42,307 nt of DNA from a virus (IMGVR_UViG_3300037474_000239); one strand, 5' to 3'. Shown: positions 15,959 through 41,542, counted from the first letter of the stretch. Made by a program: numbers and translations. Notes: a model not told the origin generated them from the sequence alone.

Positions 15959-16311
15959 GCTGCGGAACCGTCCCAAACTGCGCCGCCATCATCGGCGCCG
16001 GTCGCTGCCAGGGGGACTGTTGCGGACCTGTCCCGTTCCCAAGATCGGAATGGGCCGAACTGCGCTTTCGGGCGGTCCGCCCCGTTCTCAAGGTCCTGGA
16101 AGACAACCCGCACCCCGGACTTGTCCTCCCGCTTGGCCCGGGCGCCAACTGCGTCTTCCTCACCAACGACTGGCGATGCGCCATCTATGACCGGCGGCCC
16201 CACGTGTGCCGGATCTTCGGCGACTCTCGGGAGAAATCACCTTTCCTGTGCTGCCCACACGCCCAGAGCCCAGCTGATCGTGTCCCGGCCCAAGGAGGCG
16301 GTGTTTCGTGA
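15955..16311 (+). CDS. YkgJ/UPF0153-like CxxCxxCC zinc/iron-chelating domain protein (118 aa).
   Basis: GRCQGDCCGPVP ... NCVFLTNDWRCAIYDRRPHVCRIFG. GTGA overlap. Confidence 0.6.
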   Translation: MSCGTVPNCAAIIGAGRCQGDCCGPVPFPRSEWAELRFRAVRPVLKVLEDNPHPGLVLPLGPGANCVFLTNDWRCAIYDRRPHVCRIFGDSREKSPFLCCPHAQSPADRVPAQGGGVS

Positions 16312-16324
16312 GCCTCGCACCCAT
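16303..16324 (+). repeat. Copy A of the 22-nt dispersed motif: GTTTCGTGAGCCTCGCACCCAT.
   Basis: The exact 14-nt core TGAGCCTCGCACCC is shared with the copies at 23553, 36640 and 41521. Confidence 0.9.
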
Positions 16325-16352
16325 TGCAGAAGTCCATCAGAGAGGAGGATTC

Positions 16353-16637
16353 ATGGAAACGTCAGGGAAAGAAGACGCTGTCATAGGCGCCAAATCGGAA
16401 CGATCGTCCGACCGGGTGTTGAGGGAGAAGACATGGTCCGAGCGCGGCCTTGAGGAAAAGGTCGAGTTGCTGCGGGGGGCTATCTGCTCTCTTTCCCGGG
16501 AGGTCGACTCCGAAGGCCGCCGTGTCAACGCCCTCACCAAGCACGTCCATGTTGACGGGAAGATCCATGTTCCGTACGCCGACGGCGTCGAGAGGCCGGA
16601 GGCATCGCTCCCGTACTGGGCCTGGCAGCTCAAGTAG
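16353..16637 (+). CDS. Hypothetical protein (94 aa, METSGKEDAV...).
   Basis: AGAGGAGGA RBS 5 nt upstream of ATG 16353. Confidence 0.6.
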   Translation: METSGKEDAVIGAKSERSSDRVLREKTWSERGLEEKVELLRGAICSLSREVDSEGRRVNALTKHVHVDGKIHVPYADGVERPEASLPYWAWQLK

Positions 16638-16645
16638 AGCCAAGA

Positions 16646-16671
16646 CCTGGGGAGCCCGGCATCGCCCCAGG
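16646..16671 (+). terminator. Hairpin CCTGGGG-N12-CCCCAGG after the gene; weak CTCTTTC tract.
   Basis: Read directly 9 nt after the stop at 16637. Confidence 0.35.
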
Positions 16672-17020
16672 CACTCTTTCGCGCGGGTCACGTCGCGCAC
16701 AGCGGCACAAATAGCGTGGCTGAGGGATCAAGGCCCACCGAGACCGCAAAACGGGCCGAGTCCAACTAGACCCCCGCTGGGCGGCCGCGGGGGCTCCGAT
16801 TCGCCCAGGCTCAAGGCCCGGCACCGAAGAGGAGCCCCCCCGAACGCCCAGGGCGTCGGCAGGCGACGTGCCTTCGCCAGGGGATGAACGTGAGCGTCGG
16901 GGCAGCCCGGCTTCGAGCAGCATGGCTCCAATGTTGGCAGGAAGGCTTCCACCGGGTTCAGGGGGGCGTCAGAGGCGGCAGGCAATGCATACGGTTAATA
17001 CTGCGATTCGCATACACCGA

Positions 17021-17089
17021 TAGGGGACATGAAAGGGGACATTTTTCCGAGTTTTCCGTCTGAGAAATAGGGGACATGAAAGGGGACAT
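17021..17089. promoter_or_regulatory. Two perfect 22-bp direct repeats TAGGGGACATGAAAGGGGACAT (17021-17042 and 17068-17089). This gives four GGGGACAT boxes, 11 bp apart within each pair. Putative operator or iteron array.
   Basis: Read directly. Lower-GC gap that also contains TTTTCCG x2 and GCATAC x2. Immediately upstream of the HTH gene at 17119. Confidence 0.7.
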
Positions 17090-17118
17090 CACGTTTGGAG
17101 CCACGGACGGATCTCAAC

Positions 17119-17268
17119 ATGCAGGAAGCGGCCAGGAAGTTGAGGATGAGCTACAGGCACGTGAAGCGTTTGGTTTCTTCCGGTCGGATTCAGGTCCGCA
17201 GGCGTGGCCGGGAAAAGATGATCTCGATGAAGGAGCTTTTGAGGTTCATGGGAGGAGGCTCACGATGA
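17119..17268 (+). CDS. Excisionase/MerR-type HTH DNA-binding protein (49 aa), Xis- or Cro-like. Not in the ORF track because it is under 60 aa.
   Basis: Hand translation: MQEAARKLRMSYRHVKRLVSSGRIQVRRRGREKMISMKELLRFMGGGSR. This is the typical excisionase-family HTH pattern (AA..L..S...V..L...G.I....G++..I...EL..F). ATGA coupling to the next gene. Confidence 0.65.
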   Translation: MQEAARKLRMSYRHVKRLVSSGRIQVRRRGREKMISMKELLRFMGGGSR

Positions 17269-17660
17269 CAGACGGGGAAGACGAGAAGACCGAGGCTGGG
17301 GAGACGCTGGCGGCGATGGGCCGGCAGATGGCCGAAGTGGCTGCGGACCTGCCGCGGCGGTGGGAAGCGGTGAAGGCGGAGACGCTGGCCCAGGTGTCGG
17401 CGAAGCTGGACGATCTGAGGCGGACCAGGCAGTGGGACATGCCGCCGATGGCCGAGACCAGCGACGTGCAGAGCATCGTGCGGATGGAGACCTACTTCAT
17501 CGGCCGGGCCGCCGAGATGGTGCTGACGGCGGTCAGCCTCGCCTTCAACCGCGGCGCCGGGTCATTGGCCGGGGAGGCCAAGCAAGGCGAGCAGAGTCCT
17601 GCCAACGGTGAGTGCCATCGGCCCCCGGCCACACCGGAGAACCTCGGGGAGAGCCTATGA
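17265..17660 (+). CDS. Hypothetical protein (131 aa).
   Basis: GGAGGAGG RBS. The ATG at 17265 lies inside ORF 17076..17660. Confidence 0.55.
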   Translation: MTDGEDEKTEAGETLAAMGRQMAEVAADLPRRWEAVKAETLAQVSAKLDDLRRTRQWDMPPMAETSDVQSIVRMETYFIGRAAEMVLTAVSLAFNRGAGSLAGEAKQGEQSPANGECHRPPATPENLGESL

Positions 17661-17851
17661 CAGCCCTTGTGGCCTCCGTGGGACTCGGCTTCATCCTCAA
17701 GACCGTCGCTATGGCCGCGGGCGTCTTTGCGGCCACATTCGGTCTTCTGATGCTGTGGGGGCTGTGCCGGGTGGCGGGGAAGCCCATGCCCAGGCCGGAC
17801 CAGGATCCGGGGGACCGGGGTCCGGCGGTGGTCAACGTGAGAAAGGTCTGA
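17657..17851 (+). CDS. Small membrane protein (64 aa, 2 predicted TM segments).
   Basis: MTALVASVGLGFILKTVAMAAGVFAATFGLLMLWGLC. ATGA overlap. Confidence 0.5.
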   Translation: MTALVASVGLGFILKTVAMAAGVFAATFGLLMLWGLCRVAGKPMPRPDQDPGDRGPAVVNVRKV

Positions 17852-18652: not shown

Positions 18653-18810
18653 CCGAGGAAACCACGCTGCCAGCCCCATGCCCCAAGTGCGGCGCCACCG
18701 CTGACGGCCGCCCCACCCGGCGGGAGCTGGTGAGCAAGGACGAAGGCTTTGAGCTGCAGGCCTGCGACTGCGCGGGCAAGGATCAGATCTTCAAAAGGAG
18801 ACCCCAATGA
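18649..18810 (+). CDS. Small zinc-ribbon-like protein (53 aa).
   Basis: ATGA overlap. CPKCG ... CDC. Confidence 0.4.
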   Translation: MTEETTLPAPCPKCGATADGRPTRRELVSKDEGFELQACDCAGKDQIFKRRPQ

Positions 18811-20330
18811 CCAAGACACAGGAGAAACGGGACGCCGCCGCCGAGGCCCTGCCCAGCATCGAAGTCCCAATCAACGCGGTGCGCGTGCTCGAGCAGCACC
18901 GGCGCCACTTCGACGAGAAGAAGATCAAGGAACTGGCCGGCAGCATCGCCAAGGCGGGCGTGCTGCAGCCCCTCCTCATGCGCCAGGACCCAGAGGATCC
19001 GGCGCTCTACATCCTGGTCGCCGGCGAGCGCCGGCTCCGGGCGGCCAAGTTGGCCGGGCGCGAGACCGTGCCGGCCCGGGTCGGCGCGTGGACGGAGGAG
19101 GAGGCGGCGGAGATCCAGGCCTTCGAGAACCTGCACCGGGCGGACCTCACCCCCGTGGAAGAGGCGCGGGCCTTCAAGACCCTCAAGGACGTCGGCGGCC
19201 ACGACGTGGAGGCCTTGGCCGAACGCGTGGACAAGAGCGTCGCCTACGTCTACCGCGCCCTGGCACTCCTGGAGCTCCCCGCGGCGATCCTCAAGGAGAT
19301 CGAGGTCTGGGAGCTGACGCCGGCGCACGGCCACCAGCTCATGCGCTGCCCGCCCGAGGACCGCCTGGGCGTCTACAAGGAATGGCGCGACGACTGGGAC
19401 AGCAAGGACAAGGGCTTCACGGCTCTGTCCCTACGGGAGTTCGTCGACCAGCGCCAGGGTCAGGACCTGACCAAAGCCATCTTCCCCAAGGACAAGCCCT
19501 ACGCCGGCCAGGTCGCCTGCGCCGGCTGCGCCTTCAACAGCGGCAACCAGGGCCAGCTCTTCGACGGCGCCGAGAAGGGCAAGTGCCTCAACACCTCCTG
19601 CTTCAAGACCAAGACCGACGCCTTCCGCCAGGACGTGGCCGAAAAGGCCGCGAAGGCCTTCCCCGGCGTCAAGTCCGCCGGCGTCGTGGACCGCGACTAC
19701 AGCGGCCTCCCGAAGACGAATGGCGTCGTCATCCAGGCCAAGGACGCCGACACGAAGAAGTTGAGGGCCCTCGTGGAGGAGTCCCCGGAGAAGTTCTCCC
19801 TGGTCGTGGCCAAGGAGTCGACGTGGGGCGAGAAGAAGGCGCCGGAGGCCTTCCTGGTCTGCAAGGACAGGGCGCTCCTGGAGAAGGCCGGAGTGGTCAA
19901 GCCCGAGCCCAAGGCACCGGCGGCGGCCCGGCAGTCCCAGGAGGACGTCTTCGTGGACCAGGCGGTGGACCAGGCCGTCTGGGCGCTGGCGGCCAGGTCC
20001 GCGGGTAAGGTCGGGGACAAGAGGATGCTCGAGAAGATCGTGGAGTCCTTCATCGACATGACCGGCCAGGTGGACGGGGCGGAGGTGTTCGAGGCCCTGG
20101 GCGTGCCGGTCCCGGAGTCCAGGAACGACTGGGAGGCGCTCAGCGCCAAGCAGCTCCTGGCTGCGGCCTGGTTGTTCAGCTTCGACTGCGGAACCGGCAA
20201 CCTGGAAGAGGCCCTCAAGAAGGCCGGGGTCGACGTCGCCAAGGAGAAGAAGCGGGCCAAGGAGGCCGCGAAAGGCGAGTGGGCGCTGCGCGAGGCGGGG
20301 AAGAAGGCCGAGAAGGGGCACACGTCATGA
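18807..20330 (+). CDS. ParB/Spo0J-like N-terminal-domain protein with a long C-terminal extension (507 aa).
   Basis: GVLQPLLMRQ...YILVAGERRLRAAKLAG (GERR box). HTH region DVEALAERVDKSVAYVYRALALLELP. AAGGAG RBS. Confidence 0.85.
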   Translation: MTKTQEKRDAAAEALPSIEVPINAVRVLEQHRRHFDEKKIKELAGSIAKAGVLQPLLMRQDPEDPALYILVAGERRLRAAKLAGRETVPARVGAWTEEEAAEIQAFENLHRADLTPVEEARAFKTLKDVGGHDVEALAERVDKSVAYVYRALALLELPAAILKEIEVWELTPAHGHQLMRCPPEDRLGVYKEWRDDWDSKDKGFTALSLREFVDQRQGQDLTKAIFPKDKPYAGQVACAGCAFNSGNQGQLFDGAEKGKCLNTSCFKTKTDAFRQDVAEKAAKAFPGVKSAGVVDRDYSGLPKTNGVVIQAKDADTKKLRALVEESPEKFSLVVAKESTWGEKKAPEAFLVCKDRALLEKAGVVKPEPKAPAAARQSQEDVFVDQAVDQAVWALAARSAGKVGDKRMLEKIVESFIDMTGQVDGAEVFEALGVPVPESRNDWEALSAKQLLAAAWLFSFDCGTGNLEEALKKAGVDVAKEKKRAKEAAKGEWALREAGKKAEKGHTS

Positions 20331-23025: not shown

Positions 23026-23161
23026 GGAACTGGCGAAGGTGGAAGTTATGGATGGGTGGGCCAAGGTCTACCTCGGGGAAAAGCGGATATTTGATTCGGT
23101 CGCCATCACCGCGTCGGACCTGGTAGAGGGGTGGGGTGGGCATGAGGCCAGTCTACCATGA
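23018..23161 (+). CDS. Small hypothetical protein (47 aa). Not in the ORF track.
   Basis: Hand translation: MAEELAKVEVMDGWAKVYLGEKRIFDSVAITASDLVEGWGGHEASLP. Coupled on both sides. Confidence 0.35.
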   Translation: MAEELAKVEVMDGWAKVYLGEKRIFDSVAITASDLVEGWGGHEASLP

Positions 23162-23322
23162 GGGCCCACCGCCGCCTCGAGCGGACCTGCCCCCCCCCAT
23201 GCGGCCGGGCCTTCCAGGCCAGGGCAGCGGACGTCGCCCGCGGGCGCGGCGTCTACTGCTCCAGAGCCTGCGCGGCCCGGGCCGGCCGAGCCCGGCGGCC
23301 GGGTAGGGCGGCGCTGCCGTGA
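23158..23322 (+). CDS. Small zinc-ribbon protein (54 aa). Not in the ORF track.
   Basis: Hand translation: MRAHRRLERTCPPPCGRAFQARAADVARGRGVYCSRACAARAGRARRPGRAALP. The C..CG..F....RGRG.YCS..C pattern is common in small phage proteins. ATGA and GTGA couplings. Confidence 0.45.
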   Translation: MRAHRRLERTCPPPCGRAFQARAADVARGRGVYCSRACAARAGRARRPGRAALP

Positions 23323-23534
23323 TCCGCCATCTGCTCGAGTTCTGGGGGTGGTGCTACCTGCTCGGCTTTTATTTCAGCATGGGGTGGTGCTTCGGAATCG
23401 CGGAAGAGGAAATCCAGAGCGGGGCGGTGCCCCCTCATGTTGCCGTTGTCGGCGCCGTTCTTGTGTCCGCGATGTGGCCGGTCAAGCTGCTGTGGGACAC
23501 GTTCAGACCGGCCAGGCCTCCAGAAGACGAGTAA
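23319..23534 (+). CDS. Small membrane protein (71 aa); last gene of the rightward block.
   Basis: LLEFWGWCYLLGFYFSMGWCFGI and VAVVGAVLVSAMWPV look like TM segments. Confidence 0.5.
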   Translation: MIRHLLEFWGWCYLLGFYFSMGWCFGIAEEEIQSGAVPPHVAVVGAVLVSAMWPVKLLWDTFRPARPPEDE

Positions 23535-23552
23535 GCCAGGCAGGACGGGCCG

Positions 23553-23574
23553 GTTTTGTGAGCCTCGCACCCAT
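23553..23574 (+). repeat. Copy B of the 22-nt dispersed motif: GTTTTGTGAGCCTCGCACCCAT.
   Basis: Lies in the convergent gap between the two gene blocks. Confidence 0.9.
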
Positions 23575-23593
23575 TCCAGCAGGCGAGCCAACG

Positions 23594-23917
23594 TCAATCG
23601 AACCGGATAGAGAACCCAACGCCCAAGCAGAGAATGCCGGCAACCAGGCCGATGGTGGTGGCGCCGGCGTAGAGCCCAGCCTTGTGATGGAACCTCTGGT
23701 CTGACGTGTTTCCGTTGGCCAGCTGAGCGTGATATTTGTGATGCATGATGCTGGCTTGCCGGGCCGCCAGACCGGCGCCGATGAGGGACATCACGCCGAT
23801 GGCGATCAGACTCCCGCCAGTCTCCTGCTGGGGGTTCTCGAAGTAAGGCTTATACTCGGCGTGCGCCGAAGCGAAGGGAATCAGGGCGGCAAGGGTGATC
23901 ACGAGCATCTTCTTCAT
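23594..23917 (-). CDS. Secreted/membrane protein (107 aa): signal peptide plus 2 Gly-rich TM segments. Last gene of the lysis region.
   Basis: MKKMLVITLAALIPFASAHA|EY. GGAGG lies 5 nt upstream of ATG 23917. Confidence 0.55.
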   Translation of the reverse strand: MKKMLVITLAALIPFASAHAEYKPYFENPQQETGGSLIAIGVMSLIGAGLAARQASIMHHKYHAQLANGNTSDQRFHHKAGLYAGATTIGLVAGILCLGVGFSIRFD

Positions 23918-23988
23918 CGCGGCCTCCATGGTGCCGTATTTGACGATCTTTCAGAATGCCATGCAACGGATCGGCCGTCAATGGGCCT

Positions 23989-24612: not shown

Positions 24613-25217
24613 CGTCTGCCTCCTTGGGCTACTGAGCGCCCGATGGTGCTCCACCAGGTCACCCGGTTCATGAAGTGCTCCATGGGGAAGAAGGGCCCCG
24701 GGTCCCAGTGGTCACTCATCTTGAAAGCCCGGGACACCGCGGCGTGGGTGGTGATCCCCCGCCGGCAGGCCTTCAGGCCGTCCTCATCCACCTGGGCCAC
24801 CGGGATCCCCCAGCGGCCGCAGATCCCAGCCGCGAGCCAGGCCGCCAGTTCCAACGCCTTGACCGAGAAGTCGTCGGCCCACTCCTCCGTCGTCTGCCTG
24901 GCCCGGCCGCAGATCTCGATCCCGATGGCGCGGCTGTTGGCGCCCGGGGCGTGCCAGGCGCGGTCGGTTTCGAGCACGCTCTGGGTGACGGAGTCGGCGT
25001 CCACGGCGTAGTGCCAGCTCGCCCTCCTGGCGTCCGGGGCCGCGCACCGCCGCATCAGGGCCTCCGCCCCATCCATTTCCTCCCCAACCTCGGCCGAGTG
25101 GATCACGACGAGGTCTATCGGCCGGGGCGCCGCGGGCCGGGTGAACCAGGTCGCCTGGAGGAACGGTATCCGCGCCGGCGGGGTGGCGGCGGGGAGGTCC
25201 TCCGCGGGATCAGGCAT
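24609..25217 (-). CDS. N-acetylmuramoyl-L-alanine amidase, Amidase_2/PGRP (T7-lysozyme-like) endolysin (202 aa; alternative start at 25274).
   Basis: DLVVIHSAE...ASWHYAVD...RAWHAPGANSRAIGIEICG...GITTHAAVS...DPGP. Confidence 0.8.
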   Translation of the reverse strand: MPDPAEDLPAATPPARIPFLQATWFTRPAAPRPIDLVVIHSAEVGEEMDGAEALMRRCAAPDARRASWHYAVDADSVTQSVLETDRAWHAPGANSRAIGIEICGRARQTTEEWADDFSVKALELAAWLAAGICGRWGIPVAQVDEDGLKACRRGITTHAAVSRAFKMSDHWDPGPFFPMEHFMNRVTWWSTIGRSVAQGGRR

Positions 25218-30000: not shown

Positions 30001-31956
30001 AGGGATGGGAGGGATGACGCCGTCGCTGGAACCGGGGTTGTAGCCGATGAACTGCGGAGCAGCCGGTGCCGCGGGGCGGCTGGCGGAGGCCGGCGGCGCC
30101 GCCTTTTCGGCCTCGATGCCACCCAAGGACCGCCGGCCCTCGACGTATTTGTCCAGAAGGCTGGTGATGTAGGGGTCCGTGACGGCCGGCATCTTGAGGC
30201 TCTGGTTGACGATGGCCTGGCCGGCGCCCATCAGAAGCGGAAGGTCGTTGCCGAGCCGGGTCATATCGAGATTGCCGTAGGTCTTCTTGAAGGCCTCGAT
30301 GGCGGCGGCGCGCGCCTCCGCGGTCCGGGCTGTTCGGATGGCGTTCATGGCGGTGTGGATCTCCGCGCCCAGGCGCACGGCGGTCTGGGGGGTCATGTCG
30401 GCCCCGATCCGTTTGGCGTAGTCCCGGACCACCGCGTCTGCGTCGGAAAAGAACTTGACGAAGTTGGGATGGGCCCTTATACTTTCCGTGTATGGAACCG
30501 ACGGCTCAAGCATCGGCTTCTGGCCCTGGAAAGTTGGGTGAACAGGCATCTCGCCTGCAGGAGTATCTGTTCTACCCTCCGGCGACACCGGAATCTCTGG
30601 CCGGGAAAGAGCTGTGGGATTCTCCCTGGTTTGAGCGCTGGTCCCGGCTTCGGGAGCAGCTGACGGCGGAAGGCCTGGTTGACCAGCAGGGCCTTGTGCC
30701 GGCGCCGGTGCTCCAGAAGTATTCGCCTCTGTTCCAGCGGCCGGCGTAGCCTCGGCCGCACCCCCACCCTCTCCAGCCACACGATCCGACGCCTCCGCCC
30801 CGGCAAGCGCCGGCAGGCTCTCATGGATCGCCCCTGCCCCGAGGCCCACGATGCCGCCGATTCCGGCCGCATCCAGCGCCTTGCGCCAGTCCACTGGCCT
30901 ACCAGCCGTGAAGTCCTCGATCACCGATTGGCCGGCCTCCTGCAGGCCCTCCATGGAAGCCGACCGGATCTCTCCCATGACGTGACCCACCTGCTTGGCA
31001 TCAAAAATGCCGCTGAGCTTGTTGGTCACGGTCAGAAGCAGCAGGTTCCCCCAGAAACTCGCATCGGCCCGCTGGGCCGCCTCTTCCCGCGGCACCCCGG
31101 CCGCCAGCTGGTCCATGAACTGCCCGCCAGACTCCGAGGCCGCCTCCAGGAGAGTGGACGCACCGGCGCCCACGGCCGGCGCCAGGCGGAGGGCCAGGGG
31201 GCCCAGGGTCGCCGCGGCTCCGGCGCCGCGGGCGATGCCCATGCCGGGGATCAGGAAGACGGCGGAAGAAGTAGCGCCCTGAACCACCTTGTCCACGAAG
31301 TTCTGTTCGTCCGGAGCCAGGTCCTGGGACAGCTGCCCCAGCTTCTTGGCGAAGGCCTCCACCGGCCTCGCCAGTCGCCCGCCCACACCCGCGCGCTCGG
31401 CCAGGAGCGGAACGGCGCCGGCCATCCCCGCGGCGGTCCCCAGCAGGCCGGCGCCGACGTCCCCAGCTACCCGCTGGGCCCTGGGGTCATTCAGGATCGC
31501 ACGCGGGGCGAAGGGCTCAGCCGCGCCGCGGACCACGTCTTGGGTGGATGCGGGCGCCCGGGGAAGGGGCGGCAAGGCGCGGCGTGTCAGGTCAGCGGCC
31601 GCGGCGGCGGCGCGTTCAAAGAACCCAGGGCCCCCGGCCGAGTCAGGGGCCCCAGGAATGGGTGCGAGGCTGCCGGAACCGGCCTGCGGCGGGGCTGGTG
31701 GTGTGGGCGGAGGGGTTGGGGCACCCACGGCGGCGCGGCGGGCCGCTAAGCGGTCGAAGACGTCGCCGCCGGATGCAGCGGGCGGCGTGGGGCCAGCGGG
31801 CTGTTGGCGGGCGGCCGAGACCCTGTCGAAGATGTCCCCTTCCGGCGCGCCTGGCGCCGGGGCCGATGGTGCGCCGCCGGGCCCGGAGGCCGGCGGCGCG
31901 GCGGCCGGCCGCTGCCGGCGGCGCTTCTCCTCGATGAGGTCGAAGACGTCCGGCAT
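27049..31956 (-). CDS. Giant virion-associated protein (1635 aa), T7 gp16-like by position (internal/ejection protein). P/A-rich N-terminus and Gly/Ala-rich hydrophobic helices.
   Basis: Uninterrupted high-GC3 ORF. Sits between core-like genes and the fibre. No catalytic motif recognised by eye. Confidence 0.5.
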   Translation of the reverse strand: MPDVFDLIEEKRRRQRPAAAPPASGPGGAPSAPAPGAPEGDIFDRVSAARQQPAGPTPPAASGGDVFDRLAARRAAVGAPTPPPTPPAPPQAGSGSLAPIPGAPDSAGGPGFFERAAAAAADLTRRALPPLPRAPASTQDVVRGAAEPFAPRAILNDPRAQRVAGDVGAGLLGTAAGMAGAVPLLAERAGVGGRLARPVEAFAKKLGQLSQDLAPDEQNFVDKVVQGATSSAVFLIPGMGIARGAGAAATLGPLALRLAPAVGAGASTLLEAASESGGQFMDQLAAGVPREEAAQRADASFWGNLLLLTVTNKLSGIFDAKQVGHVMGEIRSASMEGLQEAGQSVIEDFTAGRPVDWRKALDAAGIGGIVGLGAGAIHESLPALAGAEASDRVAGEGGGAAEATPAAGTEANTSGAPAPAQGPAGQPGLPPSAAPEAGTSAQTRENPTALSRPEIPVSPEGRTDTPAGEMPVHPTFQGQKPMLEPSVPYTESIRAHPNFVKFFSDADAVVRDYAKRIGADMTPQTAVRLGAEIHTAMNAIRTARTAEARAAAIEAFKKTYGNLDMTRLGNDLPLLMGAGQAIVNQSLKMPAVTDPYITSLLDKYVEGRRSLGGIEAEKAAPPASASRPAAPAAPQFIGYNPGSSDGVIPPIPLFNLPSGDTVSAKTLQARGIPVPEIPSYEDWTKASEELEVKSFLAKSFRPDTGAPIERRAPGNGETAAGGTQAPEPPLSEMFNPVVGVARQEEVAARSMAEAKRAEHLAQQDTEKARLPSRAGMPRTYTEAQALRISLQREARAAAAAYTAGQADAKMSERWLGAERDRIKKSLADKVKEVLPPEARGKFAQAIASARTPKDLAKALVRVDQAVEQVQKRTLIGRIKRNFERVIASKSIAVDYVGRVKGLMQDVLLAKPRAETMARLAETQRAINNARAAGQQVEVPQYVVDKIRALTARPLADMPVARIEDVLDQIKRLADLGKTKLEAMQAIDSAQKESDIGDIMAGSTPIESREQIRALPGQELAISDRIRNGLRWAYNAAQNAHYAITPMDVVFDVMDGSANYAGPNYRIFKARVDNAFGTYADEAMNLREEARARSQKLGLNEKSMERIGVFAIDNQEGGRQKLYNLGLSDEDIGAIKLTPAEAGFYNYMRQNLDRLRPRIAETMRKVYNAELGQVQHYFPFVTDWDQMSEQDLRDRMLTEMTGLRKSAEQGFTKERKGAGKQKVNLNALDVYLKHVDDASYLINVGPTAKYLGELAGSAEYGQAVGNVGQRMAREWIDTIARKGGGFGDQQIRVLDALRRNAGLAALGLRVSSALVQPTTILQGGALIGPRVFQGMTDIAVSRPWRQFIIDNFPELRERAGDDIAFLDFNGQGIKDKAGQLMLMPLQKLDILAARSVAAGAYRKFLADRGIPMDLENPNQQAIEYAQRVVRRTQSSSSFKDAPQALTRGRLTGNRSLDRAILQFQSFVLNDWSLLTHEGIRTGIGKGNIAQGVNTALWSLMAVMAATGIRGVVKDALSGGHDDNRDYWNEVGKNLLSNVPFVSNIMSAFYGREFAPSVDLVARAIKGGAQVAKGDTPAARDRGKIDLAQSLATIAGIPIPSQLADIAKNVVGSGGPARQGSRSAPPRRPGSRAVILR

Positions 31957-33943: not shown

Positions 33944-36661
33944 CTATTCCGGCACTACGTCCGGCGTAAAGTCCAAGGTCGCGCCGAGGATCCGCCAGAA
34001 CGTCGTGCCGGAGACCGCAAACTTGACGCTGATGTTCCGCCCCGACTGGGCCTGCGAGAACGGGAACGATAGACGGAAGTTCTGGATGCCCGCGTCCTCG
34101 TTCATGACCTGGCTGGCGAGGCTGTAGTCGGTGGAAGTGTCGCCGTTGAGCTGGAAGGTCGAGGCGAGCGTCTGGGCGCTCAGCTCCGTGGTGACCTCCA
34201 GGTCGTCGTAGGCGTTGGAGAGGTTCGGCCCGGACGGCGAGTATGTGGCCGTCCTGAAATACGCCGAGATCGCTGATCCCGCGTCGGCGTAGGCGGTCTC
34301 ATATTGGAAGACGCCGCTTGAATTCCCGAAGAAGAGGTTGCCGTTGTAGAGCACCAACGACGCCGCGCTGATCCCGCTATACCTCTGCCATTGGCGGTTG
34401 CGGTCGAAGACGATCACGCGGTTGTTGCTGGTCGAATTCTGAGATACTCCAAGCCAGTAGCGCTGTCGGAACCAGGTCGACGGGGTCTTCGTCGTGTTGC
34501 CCTCCGACCAGGACAAGGTCAGGCTGTGGTTGGTGGGGTTCTGAGTCGACACGGCGATCGTCTCCGTTTCCCCCACGCGGACGTAGGCCGACGTCGAGAG
34601 CGTGATGAAGGATCCAGATGTGATGGTCTGGCTCGAGACGAATTGGGCCGTGGGGACACCGTTGGTGATGGTCATGACGGTATCGGTATCGGTGTAGACC
34701 GCGTACGCCACAGTCCCGCCGTCGGCAGTCGTGTCGGCGCCAAAGGTGCCCCATGAGGTGGGGGACCCCGTGGCGATCGAGGAAGAGATGAAGGCGCCGT
34801 AGTTGGCCCGGGCGGCCAGGGTGACGTCGTCCAGGAACGGCAGCGCCGTGCCGTTGGTGCTGTTTCCCGTGGAAATAGTGACCACCCATCGAATGTAGCG
34901 GCGGAAGTCGGACGCCGGCGCGCTGCCCGTGGACCACGCCACCGCCGTCTGCCAGGTCGACCCGTTGGACGACGACTGGGTCTGCATGGTGATGGAGTGC
35001 CCATTCGTGGTCCAGCTCGCGCCGGACGATAGCCAGGCCGCGCTCGTGAGGGATGTGTCGAAGGCCTGGGACGAAAGCGTTCCCGAATAGATCGAGGAGC
35101 GGCCGCCGCCGAAGTTGTCGTAGGCGACGATGGCGTTGCTGCCCTGGGAGTAGGCGTAGAACGTCATCGTGCCGCCGGAGCACAGGAACGTTGCGGTCTT
35201 CACGCCGGAGCCGTTTTGACGGTAGGAATTGATCTTGATGTAGCGCCCTACGTAGGCGGAGAGGTCCACCGTGATCGGATTCCAGGCGCAGGTCGTCAGC
35301 GACGTGAAGTTGTATGGTGTCGCGAGGATGTTGCCCGCGGCATCTTGAATCTCCACTAAGATGGAATCGCTTCCGATCGGCGCAAGGCCGGTGGCACCCA
35401 CGAAAAACGAACCGCTTTGTGGACTGATGGTCCCGCAGGCTGTCCCCGTCAGGCTCGCCACTCGTGAGAGAGACGTCAGCGTCCACTCCGAGCCAACGGC
35501 GCTCTCGAAGCTGCCGTTGTCGACGGCGGTGTTGCTGGTCGAAAGATAGACCCGGTTGTCGACGACCGTGACGTTGGACGAAGACGTGAAGGCGTTGAAG
35601 TCCGCCGTGGCGGTGTCGGTGCGGGTCCAGGTGGTGAGCATGATGTCGCCGCTGACGATGGCCGAGGACTTCTGATATAAGGTGCCGTTGTTGTAGTCGG
35701 ACTGGGTGGTGAGGGTGAAGGAGCGGGAATTCGCGTCACCCTGGCCGATCTGGGACAGATACCCCTTGATGTTCTTGCCGATGTTCTCCAGGTGAGAGCC
35801 ATTCCACTCGTAGATGGTCCGGGCCGGGCCCAGCCACCGCAGGAGACCGTCGCAGTCGCGGATGCTATCGGGATAGGCGGTGCCTACGTTGTCAGAGTAG
35901 GTCCGGACCGTGAAGTCGGCGCGGCTGTTGCCATCGATGACGCCGAAACTCATGGATTTCATCCAAACGATGGCGTCACGGTGGCTTGAGTATAGGGCCG
36001 TCAGTGGTTCGTCTACGGCGCCTCCAATGACGAACTGAGCTGGATCCGTCACGGCCGGGTCCACGACCAGGTCCCAGCTCGTGCCGTCCCCGAACTTCGA
36101 GGCGAAGACCGTGCGCGGGAACGAACTATGCCCGGCGGCCCACAGGCGGTTCTTGTGGGCCACCAGCTGGGTGATCTTGAGGGAGGCCGATGCCACCACC
36201 ACGGAGCTCGTGTCCCAGTATTTGAGGCCGTCGGTGGTGCTGGCGAAGAAGAACTTGTCGCCCAGGACCGCGGCGGTGACGTTGATGTTGGCGGCGACGG
36301 TTGAGACCGTGATGCCGAAGCTGCAGCTCCCGGTGTCGGCCTTGAGCACGCCACCGCTCTGGATGATCTGATAGCGGGTGCCGTTGGAATGGGGGAAGAC
36401 CCAGGCGGCGGTGGCGGAAGAGGCGTTGCAGAGGGTGAAGCCATACCGCGGCGAGAGGCCCGGGCCCTCGTCAGTGACGACGTTCTCCGCGTCCGGCGTC
36501 TGTCCATCCGTGAGCGTGGCGGGGCTGTAGTCGGTATTGAGACCGGAGAATTGGTTGATGATGACGGTCTCGGACGTCGCCGGCGCCGCGCCCAGAAGGG
36601 CGATGCCCAGGACAGTCCAGATCGGCCCAAGGCGTGCCAGTTTCATGAGCCTCGCACCCAT
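33944..36661 (-). CDS. Tail nozzle/tubular-protein-B-like protein (905 aa; alternative ATG at 36646) with a signal-like N-terminus and a central carbohydrate-binding-like insert.
   Basis: MGARLMKLARLGPIWTVLGIALLGAAPATSETVIINQFSGLNTDYSP... Propeller-like KFFFASTTDGLKYWD and NRLWAAG. Size and order follow the adaptor-like gene, as in T7 gp11-gp12. Confidence 0.45.
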   Translation of the reverse strand: MGARLMKLARLGPIWTVLGIALLGAAPATSETVIINQFSGLNTDYSPATLTDGQTPDAENVVTDEGPGLSPRYGFTLCNASSATAAWVFPHSNGTRYQIIQSGGVLKADTGSCSFGITVSTVAANINVTAAVLGDKFFFASTTDGLKYWDTSSVVVASASLKITQLVAHKNRLWAAGHSSFPRTVFASKFGDGTSWDLVVDPAVTDPAQFVIGGAVDEPLTALYSSHRDAIVWMKSMSFGVIDGNSRADFTVRTYSDNVGTAYPDSIRDCDGLLRWLGPARTIYEWNGSHLENIGKNIKGYLSQIGQGDANSRSFTLTTQSDYNNGTLYQKSSAIVSGDIMLTTWTRTDTATADFNAFTSSSNVTVVDNRVYLSTSNTAVDNGSFESAVGSEWTLTSLSRVASLTGTACGTISPQSGSFFVGATGLAPIGSDSILVEIQDAAGNILATPYNFTSLTTCAWNPITVDLSAYVGRYIKINSYRQNGSGVKTATFLCSGGTMTFYAYSQGSNAIVAYDNFGGGRSSIYSGTLSSQAFDTSLTSAAWLSSGASWTTNGHSITMQTQSSSNGSTWQTAVAWSTGSAPASDFRRYIRWVVTISTGNSTNGTALPFLDDVTLAARANYGAFISSSIATGSPTSWGTFGADTTADGGTVAYAVYTDTDTVMTITNGVPTAQFVSSQTITSGSFITLSTSAYVRVGETETIAVSTQNPTNHSLTLSWSEGNTTKTPSTWFRQRYWLGVSQNSTSNNRVIVFDRNRQWQRYSGISAASLVLYNGNLFFGNSSGVFQYETAYADAGSAISAYFRTATYSPSGPNLSNAYDDLEVTTELSAQTLASTFQLNGDTSTDYSLASQVMNEDAGIQNFRLSFPFSQAQSGRNISVKFAVSGTTFWRILGATLDFTPDVVPE
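36640..36661 (+). repeat. Copy C of the 22-nt dispersed motif: GTTTCATGAGCCTCGCACCCAT.
   Basis: Overlaps both candidate start codons of the nozzle-like gene on the opposite strand. Confidence 0.9.
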
Positions 36662-36680
36662 CAGAGCGACCCCTGGCCGG

Positions 36681-37424
36681 TCACCGCGGCGCCGCCTGCA
36701 CAGACGGGGTGTAGTTCGGGGCGGCGCCAAACCGGGCCGACATGGTTTGGACGTAGCGCTCGTACTCCTTCAGGTAGAACTGGGACTCATCGAACTTGCC
36801 CTGAATGGCCTTGATCTTCGCCGTCACTTGGGCCACGATGACGTAGTGGTATGGCTTCAGGTGATTGAAGCCGTCGAAGGGCACGTCGGAGTCCGACGCC
36901 ATGTCCGAGGGGAAGTAGGCATACCAGACCTTCACCGTCCCGGTGGACGATGTCACCGGTACCGGCACGTAGGCGATCTCCAGGGCGTCGTTCGAATTCC
37001 CGGGGTAGCGGGTGAAGTAGTGGTCCGGCGTGCCGGAACTGGCCGCCTCGAAGTTGGCCTCGTCCTGGTAGACCTTCCGGAAAGAGAATTCATCGAGCCG
37101 CGTCGTTAGGCCAGAAGTGTCCGTGAAAGTCACGAGCTTTGCGGCGATGAAGTTGGACGGCAGCGCGTAGTAGGTCGTCCCCACCGTGAGGGCATAGGAC
37201 GTCGACGTTTCCACGCACCAGGTGAGGTTCACCACCTCCCGCTGCGCCTCATTGATCCAGTCGTCGAGGATGGCGTCCGAGTAGCGGTTTCCGGACGTGG
37301 CGGTGTCGCGGACGTTCCTCCGGATCTGGGTCTCCAGGTCCGCGAGTGTGAGCGCCCGCGCGCCGGCCGGCAGCAACGCCGCCAATCCCAGGGCAAGAAG
37401 AAGCGCTCTGCGAAGCCTTTGCAT
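36681..37424 (-). CDS. Tail adaptor/tubular-protein-A-like protein (247 aa) with a signal-peptide-like N-terminus.
   Basis: GAGGAGG RBS 8 nt before ATG 37424. MQRLRRALLLALGLAALLPAGARA|LTLADLETQIRRNVRD... Confidence 0.4.
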   Translation of the reverse strand: MQRLRRALLLALGLAALLPAGARALTLADLETQIRRNVRDTATSGNRYSDAILDDWINEAQREVVNLTWCVETSTSYALTVGTTYYALPSNFIAAKLVTFTDTSGLTTRLDEFSFRKVYQDEANFEAASSGTPDHYFTRYPGNSNDALEIAYVPVPVTSSTGTVKVWYAYFPSDMASDSDVPFDGFNHLKPYHYVIVAQVTAKIKAIQGKFDESQFYLKEYERYVQTMSARFGAAPNYTPSVQAAPR

Positions 37425-38534: not shown

Positions 38535-38540
38535 GGCGCC

Positions 38541-39343: not shown

Positions 39344-39345
39344 GA

Positions 39346-40245
39346 TCAGCTCACCGCGTGCCCGTACGTCCAGAACGGGTCGGCGCAACCGATGCCGTAG
39401 AAGCTGTAGACGACCCAGCGGGACACGAGCGAGGACAGCTCCTTGTCCTTCAGGGTCAGCTTCTTCTCGACGTTGAACCAGTACATCGCCTCCTTCATCC
39501 GGGCCTTGTTCAGCATCCCCCAGTTGTTGGTGTCGGCGATGACCCGGGACTCGATGACGTCGAACTGACCGTAGTAGTAGTTCGTGTTGTTGGTCACGGC
39601 GTCGGGCTTGCCCTTGGAGCCGACGATCTCGTTGGCGTAGGCGCACATGTCCGACGGCACCCAGATCGCGTCCGGCTTCCGATCGAAGAGGGGCTGGTCG
39701 TTGGGGCTGTTGAACTTCTTCATCAGAACCACTGTCGCGTCCACCGAGGAGTAGGCGAGCTCGGACGTCCCGAGGTTGCCCTGGTTGGAGCCGCCGACGT
39801 TGGAGGTGTGCGCGGTGTGGTACAGAGCCAGGGTGTCGCCAACCGTGAAGGTGGAGAAGCCCAGGTTCGCCCAGGCGTAGGTGGATGTGATCCACCGCAG
39901 CGGGAGCGCTCGGGAGAGGGCCTTCAGGCTGGACTCCACCACCGCCACCTGCTGCGTCTTGATGAGGCGGTACTGGATGGAGGTTCCCTTCACGTACTCC
40001 ACCATGGAGATGTTCTTCCGGTAATTCTGCTTCGCGCCTTCGAAGGCGATCTGCCCGGTGAAAGGCTCCGCCGCGCCGAGGTCTCCCGTAGTCAGGATCG
40101 ACTCGGTTTCCCGGTCGGTGTCCTTGACGGTGAAATACTTGCCAACCTCTTCCGGCACGTCGCCGGTCCAGGTGTCGATCTTCTTGCGGACCGAGGCGTC
40201 GATCGCGTCGGCCCAGTTCGCTTGTGTGGCTGGGGTTGCGGGCAT
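39346..40245 (-). CDS. Major capsid protein, HK97-fold-like (299 aa).
   Basis: Strong AAGGAGGAG RBS. Size and position. Capsid-like segments YFTVKDTDRETESILTTGDLGAAEPFTGQIAFEGAK and C-terminal WVVYSFYGIGCADPFWTYG. Confidence 0.7.
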   Translation of the reverse strand: MPATPATQANWADAIDASVRKKIDTWTGDVPEEVGKYFTVKDTDRETESILTTGDLGAAEPFTGQIAFEGAKQNYRKNISMVEYVKGTSIQYRLIKTQQVAVVESSLKALSRALPLRWITSTYAWANLGFSTFTVGDTLALYHTAHTSNVGGSNQGNLGTSELAYSSVDATVVLMKKFNSPNDQPLFDRKPDAIWVPSDMCAYANEIVGSKGKPDAVTNNTNYYYGQFDVIESRVIADTNNWGMLNKARMKEAMYWFNVEKKLTLKDKELSSLVSRWVVYSFYGIGCADPFWTYGHAVS

Positions 40246-40257
40246 GTCATCTCCTCC

Positions 40258-40983
40258 TTAGTCGATCGTGTAGCCGCCGGCGTTCCGGACCATGAGGTCG
40301 CAGAAGAACTTCGTGGCGCGGCCGGTGGCGTTGAGGCCGTCCAGGTTGTCGTGGACGGTGGGGTCGAGGATCTCGAGTCCGCGGACGGTGTTCTGGATCC
40401 AGTTCTGGAGAACGAGCATGGTCCAGGAACCGGCGGCGGCGTCCGTGCCGATCTTGTCGGCGGCGGCGTTCAGCTTCGCCAGCTGGTGGAAGAGGCGAAG
40501 GATCTTGATGACGGTGGTGTCCGAAGACCATCCCATCGCCGTCTTCTGCGTCGCCGAGCCCGAGGCCGAGGAGGCCAGGAAAGAGAGTTCGCCCGCCCCG
40601 GTACCGGTAACCGCGTAGGCCCAGCTGGTGTCGATGTTGTCTTCCAGGGACGTGATGGTGAGAGTCGTCCCGGAGTTGCTGGCCACGGCCGCGGTGTCGG
40701 TCAGGTCGTATTCGGACCGGATGACGGCGCCCGAGAAGGCCGGGCTAACCGTCCGCAGGTTCCATACCGTTCCCGTCACGAGGGTGTTGCCGGCTGTTGT
40801 CGCCAGAGGCCCCTGCAGGGCGCCGATGGCGTCGGCGCCGGCGGTCGCGGCCACGATGAGGACACCGAGGTCGGTGTCGGCCGTGACGCCGGGCATCAGC
40901 AGGGCCCCGTCCACCATGGCGGTGCCGCCGTGCTTGACGGGCCAGCTGAAGTACTGGCTTTCGATTGCGCTCAGAACTCGCAT
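40258..40983 (-). CDS. Ala/Gly/Thr-rich head protein (241 aa); decoration-like by its lambda D-before-E position.
   Basis: AAGGAGGAACAAAAG RBS. Immediately upstream of the capsid gene. Confidence 0.35.
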   Translation of the reverse strand: MRVLSAIESQYFSWPVKHGGTAMVDGALLMPGVTADTDLGVLIVAATAGADAIGALQGPLATTAGNTLVTGTVWNLRTVSPAFSGAVIRSEYDLTDTAAVASNSGTTLTITSLEDNIDTSWAYAVTGTGAGELSFLASSASGSATQKTAMGWSSDTTVIKILRLFHQLAKLNAAADKIGTDAAAGSWTMLVLQNWIQNTVRGLEILDPTVHDNLDGLNATGRATKFFCDLMVRNAGGYTID

Positions 40984-41009
40984 CTTTTGTTCCTCCTTGG
41001 AGACGGAAA

Positions 41010-41060
41010 AGGGGCCGTGAGACCAAAGATCAATCGCTTGATCTTGGCTTCACGGCCCCT
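41010..41060 (-). terminator. Long imperfect stem-loop (about 20 bp) followed by TTTTCC on the minus strand, just upstream of the RBS of gene 40983. Could be an attenuator, a processing site or a stabiliser.
   Basis: AGGGGCCGTGA..CCAAAGATCAA-tcgc-TTGATCTTGG..TCACGGCCCCT, read directly. Confidence 0.45.
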
Positions 41061-41154
41061 AAGTGCCGTCTAGAGCGCGCCGGCTTTAGGCCGGAATTTC
41101 ACCTCGGAGCTTATCCCTCGGTCGCGCTTTCAATTTGATGAGCGGGGTTTCCGC

Positions 41155-41484
41155 TCAGAACCTGGTTACTCGCCTCCTGGTCATGGACAAGAGCGGCCTC
41201 ACGCGCCGCCTGTTCAGCGTCTTCGAGTCGGTCCGGCGTGGATTTGCCATCGCCGCCCACCGGAAGCGTCCGCAGCATGGGCAACCGGCCCTTGCTTCCA
41301 CGCTCGAGACGACACTGCTGGCCGTCGTCACCACGTTCCCGTCAGCCACGTTCTCCGGGGCCGTGTTGGACCTCAGCCTCGCGTTCACCGGGAACCCGCA
41401 CCAGCGGCACTTATAGCGGCCGGTGATGCCAAGCTGCTTGCCGTTCCCCCCTCCGGTGACGATGTCGACGAATCCGTAGGCCAT
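41155..41484 (-). CDS. Zinc-ribbon protein with an Arg-rich tail (109 aa) in the head module.
   Basis: GGAGGA RBS. CRWCG ... CPCCG. High GC3 throughout. Confidence 0.5.
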   Translation of the reverse strand: MAYGFVDIVTGGGNGKQLGITGRYKCRWCGFPVNARLRSNTAPENVADGNVVTTASSVVSSVEARAGCPCCGRFRWAAMANPRRTDSKTLNRRRVRPLLSMTRRRVTRF

Positions 41485-41520
41485 CTATCCTCCAACGGTA
41501 TTTCGGCCCGCCGCAGCCCA

Positions 41521-41542
41521 ATTCCGTGAGCCTCGCACCCCT
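41521..41542 (+). repeat. Copy D of the 22-nt dispersed motif: ATTCCGTGAGCCTCGCACCCCT.
   Basis: Lies in the 64-nt gap between the scaffold-like gene stop (41549) and the start at 41484. Confidence 0.9.

Follow-up and report, generated by a model that had tools for sequence, protein, structure and literature searches.

A conserved asymmetric element at gene boundaries of uncultured temperate phages: a possible strand-polar protein recognition site

Introduction

Why does one phage genome carry the same long, asymmetric sequence at several distant gene boundaries? The question is raised by a 42,307-nt stretch of viral DNA (IMGVR_UViG_3300037474_000239), hereafter the window, in which a 22-nt motif occurs at 16303–16324, 23553–23574, 36640–36661 and 41521–41542, in all four cases on the + strand (sites 1 to 4). 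A preliminary description of this DNA had read the motif as a site of programmed single-strand nicking. To our knowledge, what such nicks do for phages T5, phiKMV and tf has been a question for decades, and few of the enzymes have been identified.

The window is a circular assembly, with bases 1–127 identical to 42181–42307, and about 6.8% of the genome is non-coding. The phage is temperate, as an integrase is present, and its structural module (portal, adaptor) is SU10-like. The T7/phiKMV-like gene order proposed earlier is not supported, because no phage RNA polymerase was found in Pfam, PHROGs and PDB searches; the giant open reading frame (ORF) of the window lacks a DxDxD motif, and no phage sigma factor was found in the window.

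The element and its copies in the window

The coordinates and 22-mers first described match the window, and the exact 14-mer TGAGCCTCGCACCC is found at 16309, 23559, 36646 and 41527, always on the + strand. Similarity among the copies reaches about 45 nt, the 14-mer and the 22-nt motif being the core of a larger asymmetric element. Read on the + strand, this consists of a GC-rich box (often a mini-stem of 3–4 bp), GTTTYG, three variable bases, AGCCTCGCACCC and AT.

By ORF positions, all four sites lie at gene boundaries, as originally stated. Site 1 (16286–16328, +) is a complete element of the early (+) arm. It lies between an ORF with a CxxCxxCC domain (15955–16311), whose stop codon TGA is included in the motif, and a 94-aa gene with its ATG at 16353, 29 nt beyond the motif. 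Site 2 (23539–23579, +) occupies the convergent junction of the early and late arms and is flanked by the last early ORF (23319–23534) and the last late gene (23594–23929, − strand). Site 3 (36623–36666, +) lies 19 nt past the stop of the SU10-like adaptor gene (36681–37424, − strand), and its reverse complement, ATG GGT GCG AGG CTC, provides the start codon (MGARL) of a 905-aa gene. Site 4 (41504–41546, +) fills a 64-nt spacer between a gene ending at 41549 and a 109-aa gene (41155–41484), upstream of the scaffold and capsid genes; its motif lies 7 nt past one stop codon and 36 nt ahead of the next ATG.

A fifth copy, GTTCCGGCAGCCTCGCACCCAT, was found at 31658–31679 on the − strand, within the giant gene. 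It belongs to an inverted full element (31655–31696, −) with an intact 11-nt core, GCCTCGCACCC, inside the giant ORF (27049–31956). This copy is in frame and encodes GSGSLAPIPG, part of the Pro/Ala-rich linker that follows the third D[VI]FD repeat. The placement of all copies on the + strand thus holds for sites 1–4 and fails for the set as a whole, because copy 5 is on the − strand. Over 42 nt, copy 5 and site 4 are 81% identical in inverted orientation, with matching flanks, and the non-homologous sites 1 and 3 share the flank CGGCCCAAGG. With flanks that repeat those of sites 3 and 4, site 1 and copy 5 may have arisen recently by ectopic duplication. The giant ORF also contains a putative decayed direct copy, AGCCT-CGGC-CGCACCC (30748–30763, +), which is uncertain, since chance alone would give about 0.5 split matches of this type.

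The recurrence was said to be far beyond chance, and this is borne out by shuffled sequences, which gave 1.08 motif matches at up to two mismatches and never five, and 0.00 matches to the 22-mer at up to three mismatches. With permuted 11-mers, 0.08 exact matches were expected, compared with five observed. Almost no degenerate extras accompany the exact copies: the 11-nt core has five exact, no one-mismatch and 17 two-mismatch occurrences in the window, although this depletion of near matches is not significant (P = 0.08). The copies are spaced more evenly than random (P = 0.03 in the window; P = 0.003 in the related phage B, described below). They sit in spacers or in the Pro/Ala linker-coding stretch, places tolerant of a long fixed sequence.

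Conservation among related phages

Two related uncultured phages, B and C, have capsid proteins 78–84% identical to that of the window. The core GGGTGCGAGGC is identical in all three phages, although the other DNA is only about 70–78% identical, and it recurs at three homologous places. One is the junction where the early and late arms converge, another is the start codon of the gene that follows the adaptor gene, and the third is the spacer ahead of the scaffold and capsid genes. Sites 2, 3 and 4 keep their positions in phage B, and sites 3 and 4 do so in phage C; at site 2 of phage B, 37 nt of sequence are conserved along with the position. The conservation in relatives that the nick proposal implied is thus found for the motif and for three of its positions. 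The element is real and conserved, with four to five exact copies of a signal of about 45 bases in a small group of uncultured temperate phages.

Phage B contains exactly four cores within 40.2 of its 43.2 kb (93%). The strand counts are 4 + and 1 − in the window, four of four on one strand in phage B and three of three in phage C; this bias is not significant, since there are only about six independent placements (5 versus 1). Phages B and C have the giant-gene copy in direct orientation and the window has it inverted, while the only inverted copy of phage B is split and degenerate and lies 94 nt from its site 3 copy. The latter follows a 173-nt spacer, and in neither B nor C is the counterpart of the 905-aa gene preceded by a Shine-Dalgarno sequence. 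Site 1 is specific to the window, and the early arm of phage B lacks a copy. Indels adjoin sites 2 and 3. The early regions of the window and phage B are largely unrelated, and the motif tracks the conserved late module instead. There, the conserved copies share the strand that serves as template for the late genes and fall, at intervals of 5–8 kb, where a 26-kb late operon is punctuated.

The motif is confined to this small clade, apart from one copy in L058, an otherwise unrelated 144-kb viral contig. The L058 copy is full-length, has the invariant core and lies next to HNH genes; it is single, with no partner within the 11 kb examined. More distant relatives lack the motif and have hairpins at two of the three homologous positions. 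In the relative L289, no motif was found in 13.9 kb including its junction.

RNA folds and hairpins at the sites

No conserved hairpin or shared fold was found across the copies (z-scores −2.0 to +1.35), in keeping with the original description of the motif as not palindromic and free of any conserved hairpin. The covariance models of Rfam 15 gave no match at any site, tRNA-Thr being the sole match, and the folding energy of windows upstream of the sites equals that of random windows. Stems of 3–4 bp are positionally enriched upstream of the T-rich hexamer (11 of 13 copies, compared with 40% of random anchors). An intrinsic terminator was rejected, as there is no stable GC-rich hairpin with a U-tract and these stems are too weak. 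Between 6.5 and 26 kb, the region of sites 1 and 2, sigma-70-like promoter signals are lacking and terminator-like sites are not in excess; neither in the window nor in phage B does the convergent junction carry a hairpin terminator. In the motif-less L289, the junction carries a 15-bp hairpin (z = −3.7); where site 4 would lie, hairpins are present in L287 and L331. Hairpins at the same positions in motif-less relatives point to a role in RNA or transcription.

Candidate proteins encoded by the window

HNH and LAGLIDADG nucleases had been suggested as the cognate enzymes. The two nuclease genes at 14838–15958 are both HNH, and no LAGLIDADG signal was found in the window. Phage B keeps four sites, yet no homologue of either HNH gene occurs in the 40.2 kb (93%) covered, and the HNH genes of the window are unrelated to those of L058.

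The 507-aa ParB-like protein (18807–20330), whose loading site was another proposal, does contain ParB_N and HTH_ParB domains, and precedents are known in the dispersed centromere sites of prophage N15 and the KorB operators of plasmid RK2. However, the motif lacks the dyad symmetry of parS sites, canonical parS was not found in the window, and thousands of phages carry this type of ParB while the motif is limited to one small clade. Furthermore, the motif-less L289 has the ParB closer to that of the window (59%), whereas that of the motif-bearing phage B is at 45%. A loading or centromere-like site for ParB is very improbable. The proposed proteins are unsupported because the HNH genes are absent from that part of phage B, no LAGLIDADG gene is present, and the phage with the closer ParB lacks the motif.

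Possible functions of the element

Judged from its sequence features, the element may tentatively be regarded as DNA that a protein recognises in a strand-polar way, with the nick sites of phiKMV and tf as its closest parallels; transcription punctuation by a polar stop has almost the same probability. In the nick reading, a sequence-specific protein would recognise the approximately 45-bp element in double-stranded DNA and act with strand polarity, most likely by introducing a programmed single-strand nick of the sort found in T5, tf and phiKMV-like phages. The nick or the bound protein would form a polar barrier to late transcription until sealed or removed, and the enzyme could come from the shared late module, from one of the few shared early genes or from the host. 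Recognition by a protein, nicking, the choice of strand and possible consequences for transcription or packaging are what we infer from several features: the exactness of the cores with no one-mismatch variant, their restriction to one strand in phages B and C, their identity at homologous positions in diverged DNA, their placement in spacers or linker-coding DNA, their even spacing, and their association with the late module rather than with the largely unrelated early genes. The lack of a stable or conserved RNA fold, of an Rfam family, and of promoter or terminator signals around sites 1 and 2 agrees with a site read on DNA. On the other hand, no conserved nickase candidate emerges, given the distribution of the HNH genes, and one intact copy is inverted, while known nick systems are strictly one-stranded. 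The strand bias, as noted, is not significant; at 22–45 nt, the element is longer than known nick consensuses and matches none of them; and the phage is temperate, whereas the known nicked phages are mostly virulent. The hairpins of motif-less relatives also count against nicking. Overall, the nick interpretation is partly supported, by the scarcity of degenerate copies, the conservation and a resemblance to published nick motifs with the same anatomy (PMC3604761, PMC3517423); its proposed enzymes fail and its strand argument is weakened. The latter held that the sites cannot all be transcription signals; it depends on site 1 alone and is weak, because site 2 at the junction fits either arm and copy 5 is inverted.

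Transcription punctuation would require a protein-dependent polar block, either a stoperator-like roadblock or a hairpin-independent, factor-dependent terminator or insulator, which would halt RNA polymerase at the late-operon boundaries and the convergent junction and leave the DNA uncut. In line with this, the conserved copies (sites 2, 3 and 4, and the giant-gene copy of B and C) share one orientation relative to late transcription and lie 1–35 nt past late-gene stop codons or in the linker, with the exception of site 3 of phage B behind its 173-nt spacer. The junction is hairpin-free in the window and phage B and hairpin-bearing in the motif-less L289, and L287 and L331 are hairpin-bearing where site 4 would be. 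The phage is temperate, and stoperators of the L5 type likewise combine asymmetry and polarity with dispersed intergenic positions (PMC9283540). Site 1 and copy 5, which depart from the common orientation, occur only in the window, and their flanks repeat those of sites 3 and 4; however, they and the L058 copy do run opposite to the local genes, and the giant-gene copies of B and C would halt transcription in mid-gene. Moreover, there are just four to five sites per genome, none of them in the early-promoter region at about 7.7–9.3 kb, and the core stays identical despite almost unrelated early regions, unlike immunity-repressor sites. The 3–4 bp stems, enriched in position as they are, have energies no better than random and are too weak for intrinsic termination.

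Three further explanations have lower probability. RNA–RNA pairing, which we consider unlikely, would join the motif-sense copies carried by early transcripts (from sites 1 and 2) and by the mRNA of the giant gene (from copy 5) to the complementary late-mRNA copies, in a duplex that would cover the start codon of the post-adaptor gene and the scaffold/capsid leader and control translation or create RNase III sites. The two transcript sets share exact complementarity of 14–22 nt, inverted pairs extend to 30–42 nt, site 3 covers an ATG whose gene lacks a Shine-Dalgarno sequence in B and C, the split inverted copy of phage B pairs with the neighbouring site 3 copy in the minimum-energy fold, and intramolecular hairpins occupy these places in related phages. 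However, if pairing were all that mattered, both partners could change together from phage to phage, whereas the core is the same in all three phages and in L058, whose copy has no partner within the 11 kb examined; the giant-gene copies of B and C have no evident regulatory target, and no terminator defines a small RNA. An even less probable role is that of a leftward late promoter or late-activator binding site, with the core upstream of weak −35/−10 elements. Temperate phages such as P2 and Mu often have about four late promoters, and site 4, immediately ahead of the scaffold and capsid genes, keeps the same geometry in three phages (core, RAAAC, N14, a GCCGA-like box, and 15–17 nt to the ATG with GGAGG between). 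No −10 or −35 element is conserved across copies, though, and transcription from site 3 would start within the gene whose ATG sits in the motif. From sites 1 and 2 and from the L058 copy, only antisense RNA would arise, no copy precedes the terminase genes where the late operon begins, and neither a phage RNA polymerase nor a sigma factor was found. Finally, the element could be a mini-element that is selfish or prone to copying, or a sequence targeted by a homing or recombination enzyme, spreading by gene conversion with little phage function; this, too, has a low probability. It would account for the flanks shared by non-homologous copies, for copy sets that differ between close phages (site 1 and an intact inverted copy 5 only in the window), for the reversed giant-gene copy, for the indels beside sites 2 and 3, and for the full-length copy beside HNH genes in L058. 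The stable positions and invariant core in relatives, with no series of decayed copies, speak against it, as do the unrelated HNH genes of the two genomes; terminal inverted repeats, target duplications and a transposase were not found for the element.

A further, rather unlikely reading takes the element as a new form of genome punctuation: a late-module or host protein would nick or clamp the late operon on its template strand, at boundary sites with even spacing, gating late transcription, or DNA entry or packaging, until the sites are sealed; in this clade the element would replace the RNA hairpins of relatives and would spread by copying of the approximately 45-bp unit.

Comparison with known systems

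In LUZ19 and phiKMV, the nick motif CGACNNNNNCCTACTCCGG has four intergenic copies on the non-coding strand, in LUZ19 at positions 3132, 6755, 14415 and 24767 (PMC3604761). The window resembles these phages in having about four copies in a podophage of about 42 kb, placed in gene spacers on the template strand of the structural genes, and a bipartite consensus of about 20 nt that is kept among relatives and has no link to promoter activity (PMC3604761, PMC3517423). It differs in being temperate, in its two gene arms, in the lack of a detectable phage RNA polymerase and in one inverted copy, and its element has no sequence similarity to theirs; the phiKMV pattern gave only three-mismatch matches in the window, none at the five sites. 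The Pseudomonas putida phage tf (nick site TACT/RTGMC) and T5 have strand-specific sites despite convergently transcribed arms, with 14 nick sites on one strand in tf (PMC3517423). As in the window, putative sites in related phages have similar positions and near-cognate variants are rare (PMC3517423). However, tf has 14 sites of 9 nt, compared with four to five sites with a 14–22 nt core in an element of about 45 nt, and the tf pattern has no match at all in the window.

Stoperators of Cluster A mycobacteriophages (L5 gp71) are monomer-bound and block elongating RNA polymerase in one direction; they are similarly asymmetric and dispersed in short spacers of a temperate phage (PMC9283540). They are 13 nt long, number more than 20 per genome, follow transcription in both arms, occur at the early promoter and vary by immunity type. 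In the window, by comparison, site 1 and copy 5 oppose the direction set by sites 3 and 4, the five sites leave 7.7–9.3 kb empty, and the core is constant between the window and phage B despite largely unrelated early genes; no cognate immunity repressor was identified in the window. Promoters of T7-like phage RNA polymerases are conserved asymmetric sequences of about 23 nt, present in several copies at gene boundaries; unlike these, the element occurs without a detectable polymerase gene and in an orientation independent of the genes.

In this clade the site is long, exact and simple to track, with some positions conserved and others recently turned over, together with hairpins at the same places in relatives and a sense/antisense layout across convergent operons. 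If the sites are nicked, the phenomenon would extend to temperate phages without polymerases of their own, with nick positions tied to operon punctuation; if not, they would mark transcription boundaries by specific sequence and without hairpins, something for which there is hardly any documentation beyond the mycobacteriophages. In both cases the motif gives a clean means of tracing the protein that binds it. Cluster K mycobacteriophages have another conserved asymmetric motif, the 13-nt start-associated sequence repeated by gene starts (PMC3203893); it lies directly upstream of start codons in the orientation of the genes, whereas in the window only site 3 touches a start codon.

Sequence and abundance of the motif

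The 14-mer TGAGCCTCGCACCC occurs four times on the + strand of the window, starting at 16309, 23559, 36646 and 41527, within the 22-nt copies that begin at 16303, 23553, 36640 and 41521 (sites 1–4). The preliminary description had quoted these 22-mers and regarded four exact 14-mers as far beyond chance, and our searches and shuffles confirmed the sequences, the coordinates and the abundance. In dinucleotide shuffles, the chance level of the 14-mer at up to two mismatches was approximately one match and five were never reached, and that of the 22-mer at up to three mismatches was 0. The claim that all copies lie on the same strand had to be given up: a fifth copy, GTTCCGGCAGCCTCGCACCCAT, absent from that description, lies on the − strand at 31658–31679 (copy 5) and resembles site 4 over 42 nt at 81%, inverted. 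All five sites contain AGCCTCGCACCC. The motif observation is thus real; it is stronger than first stated, being kept in relatives, and less clean owing to the inverted fifth copy.

The 11-nt core GGGTGCGAGGC was found in the window five times exactly, never at one mismatch and 17 times at two, whereas permuted 11-mers predict 0.08 exact copies. This agrees with the few degenerate extra copies expected under the earlier proposal of strand-specific nick sites. Depletion of near-cognate sites was considered and rejected, since the scarcity of near-matches is not significant compared with permuted motifs. A split match, AGCCT-CGGC-CGCACCC, at 30748–30763 (+) in the giant ORF may be a decayed direct copy or chance (approximately 0.5 expected).

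When the copies are aligned, their similarity reaches approximately 45 nt, and the consensus on the late-gene strand reads ctg-n-AT GGGTGCGAGGCT NNN RAAAC N11 GGGCCG. The copies did not fold consistently better than shuffled sequence on either strand, and the 34 nt upstream folded no better than random windows. A GC stem of 3–4 bp ending 0–3 nt before the T-rich hexamer accompanies 11 of 13 copies, compared with 40% of random anchors. Rfam returned no family at the motif sites. An RNA-structure reading was rejected, there being no shared fold, no Rfam family and no hammerhead-type core; likenesses to a 5′/3′ part of tRNA or to a 16S rRNA segment were seen only by eye and dropped. ARAGORN found only a tRNA-Thr in the window.

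Placement of the element in the genome

The window (GC 65%) corresponds to JGI contig 3300037510 Ga0400236_0000032 and has near-identical contigs in sister samples, three of which (L291–L293) showed no informative variation at the sites. The phage occurs in JGI samples 3300037510 and 3300037511 (reads SRR12692786, SRR12692787 and SRR12692973). Its first and last 127 bp (1–127 and 42181–42307) are an exact repeat and represent the overlap of a k=127 assembly; therefore, the genome is a circle of 42,180 bp and the late arm spans the window ends. This arm lies on the − strand, from approximately 8 kb leftward through the numbering origin to 23.6 kb, and encodes the small and large terminase subunits, an SU10-like portal, the capsid, an SU10-like adaptor, a 905-aa protein, a 1635-aa giant protein, a tail-collar protein and an amidase. 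The early arm (+ strand, 8.2–23.5 kb) encodes a tyrosine integrase, a RecT-like protein, an exonuclease, two tandem HNH proteins, a CxxCxxCC protein, a NinG-like nuclease, a 507-aa ParB-like protein, a DnaQ-like exonuclease and YopX. Neither a phage RNA polymerase nor a LAGLIDADG gene was found in the window, and INPHARED contained no cultured phage related by DNA or portal protein.

Site 1 (+) holds the stop codon of the CxxCxxCC ORF, 29 nt upstream of the next start codon, and site 2 (+) is found where the two arms converge. Site 3 (+) is located 19 nt past the adaptor stop codon; read as the reverse complement, it opens the 905-aa gene with ATG GGT GCG AGG CTC. Site 4 (+) takes up the 64-nt spacer ahead of a 109-aa gene, itself followed by the scaffold and capsid genes. 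Within the giant protein, copy 5 (−) lies in frame in the Pro/Ala-rich linker past the third D[VI]FD repeat. Relatives contain RadC, LPD38 or ART-PolyVal domains, and the giant protein is therefore a polyvalent injected protein. Its N-terminus carries three D[VI]FD repeats with Pro/Ala-rich linkers after them (window 31680–31956 (−); 15820–17520 of L284, a stretch of the relative phage B).

The gaps between sites are more even than random in both genomes (7250, 8098, 4989 and 4881 nt in the window, P=0.03; 7229, 6579 and 6720 nt in phage B, P=0.003). This is a lead and not evidence, because the homologous positions of the two phages do not count as independent.

Conservation in relatives

Protein searches that took the adaptor, ParB and capsid as queries led to the relatives. 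Phage B (NCBI JAXOUH010024184, 43,173 bp, of which 40,228 bp or 93% were examined) has a capsid 84% identical to that of the window and contains exactly four exact cores in those 40,228 bp, each of them antisense to the late genes. One lies at the convergent junction, 1 nt past the stop of the last late gene, where 37 nt are the same as at site 2; a second is in frame within the giant gene, a third is at the ATG of the gene that follows the adaptor, and a fourth is in the spacer before a 108-aa gene. Phage C, known from a partial Logan contig (reads SRR29078110 and SRR29078145), shares 78% capsid identity with the window and has three cores, in the giant gene, at the ATG of the post-adaptor gene and at the spacer position of the 108-aa gene in B. 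The motif and its positions are thus conserved in related phages, as had been predicted. In its flanks, site 1 resembles site 3 and copy 5 resembles site 4, which suggests that these copies, peculiar to the window, arose by recent duplication of an approximately 45-nt unit.

In phage B, the last early gene has its stop codon inside the junction core, unlike in the window, where the gene is apparently broken: the 131-aa gene of B (L288 10581–10976) matches 23158–23285, and the window ORF 23319–23534 ends with TAA nine codons ahead of an in-frame TGA within site 2. The giant-gene motif lies approximately 80 nt past a D[VI]FD repeat both in the window and in the direct copy of B, in opposite orientations. 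In B, a 173-nt spacer (L284 10745–10917, about 24798–24970 of the record) separates the adaptor gene from the site 3 copy and contains an inverted split copy, AAGCCT-GGAC-CGCACCC, which is 94 nt from the site 3 copy and pairs with it in the predicted fold. The spacer also holds a possible 43-codon ORF.

More distant relatives (capsid 46–71%, GC 51–62%) are without the motif, and no analogous motif was found in five of them (L287, L289, L331, L333 and L334). At the L289 junction (7445–7480), a 15-bp hairpin (z = −3.7) is accompanied by the remnant CGCACCCAT, and in L287 (2300–2345) and L331 (8774–8830) hairpins directly follow the gene preceding site 4. These hairpins occupy the site 2 and site 4 positions of the motif-bearing phages.

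A single full-length element (2196–2235, 29.5 bits) was found in L058 (IMG/VR 3300031999_001882, 144 kb, GC 53%), between co-directional genes. This contig is otherwise unrelated and shares only the gene of a PGDYG-like small protein with the window (4510–4878). A RecA-like gene and two apparent HNH genes, recognized by eye from conserved motifs, lie near the element. When IMG/VR, JGI metagenomes and GTDB genomes were scanned for the exact core, the matches were single and mostly due to chance, with no array and no host enrichment; many of those in actinobacteria belong to one and the same conserved coding stretch rather than to RNA genes. Since no array or high-copy host repeat was seen, CRISPR repeats, uptake sequences and REP-like host repeats were rejected.

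Possible function of the element

Several features together point to DNA that is recognized by a protein: the core is exact, an RNA fold is lacking, either reading direction is tolerated in the linker, and the core is identical across phages with mostly unrelated early genes. This protein would come from the conserved late module, from the host or from the few shared early genes, which encode ParB, the DnaQ-like exonuclease and small 71- and 131-aa proteins. When the shared small proteins, the giant protein and the late proteins were searched against Pfam, PHROGs and PDB, nothing hinted at a nuclease or at DNA binding.

Beyond site recognition, the favoured but tentative inference is a strand-polar DNA transaction, for which a programmed nick in the late-gene template strand would be the leading candidate. 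In LUZ19/phiKMV the nick motif occurs four times between genes, on the non-coding strand (PMC3604761), and the 14 sites of phage tf share a single strand although its arms converge (PMC3517423). The proposed likeness to published nick motifs stands at the level of pattern, and a nick, although unproven, would have the best-matching precedent. The enzymes suggested for it are not supported: both HNH genes lack a homologue in the examined part of phage B, and the supposed LAGLIDADG gene does not exist. The argument from strand, that copies facing one way across opposed gene blocks cannot all serve the local genes, is weak, since site 2 fits either arm, copy 5 is inverted and B also has an inverted split copy. 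A "same DNA strand" rule fits 11 of 12 cores and an "antisense to late transcription" rule 10 of 12; site 1 alone tells them apart, and only about six placements are independent, split 5 against 1.

A protein-dependent polar stop of transcription is nearly as likely as a nick. Such a stop best fits the conserved sites and agrees with the hairpins at the same places in relatives. Site 1, copy 5, the copy in L058 and those within the giant gene contradict it. Pairing of sense and antisense RNA is an unlikely role. The chance is similarly slim that the element is a copy-prone mini-element. A late promoter is improbable, and sigma-70, sigma-54, sigma-28 and ECF promoter readings each fit single copies only. 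Loading of ParB, one of the alternatives offered earlier, is highly improbable: the ParB of L289 is closer than that of B and yet L289 is motif-less, the motif is asymmetric and the window has no canonical parS. A dif/Xer-like site was rejected because the arms have no dyad symmetry, and DNA inversion between copy 5 and site 3 because it would destroy the giant gene.

By sequence, the element matches no described family. Its anatomy is that of a new variety among the dispersed asymmetric sites of nicked phages and of stoperator-bearing phages.

Other features of the window

The cumulative GC skew of the whole window is lowest near 10–11 kb and highest near 42 kb. The four direct copies all fall within the rising part, which may reflect the direction of replication. 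A tRNA-Thr(TGT) at 7022–7094 (−) lies 1.1 kb from the XerC/D-sized tyrosine integrase (8179–9117 (+)); this stretch is the probable attachment-site region and a handle on the host. The two tandem HNH genes at 14838–15958 are missing from the examined part of phage B, and in the sister-sample contig L292 the first 442 nt (1–442), upstream of 15904, have no match in the window; the DNA immediately left of site 1 is therefore a polymorphic cassette.
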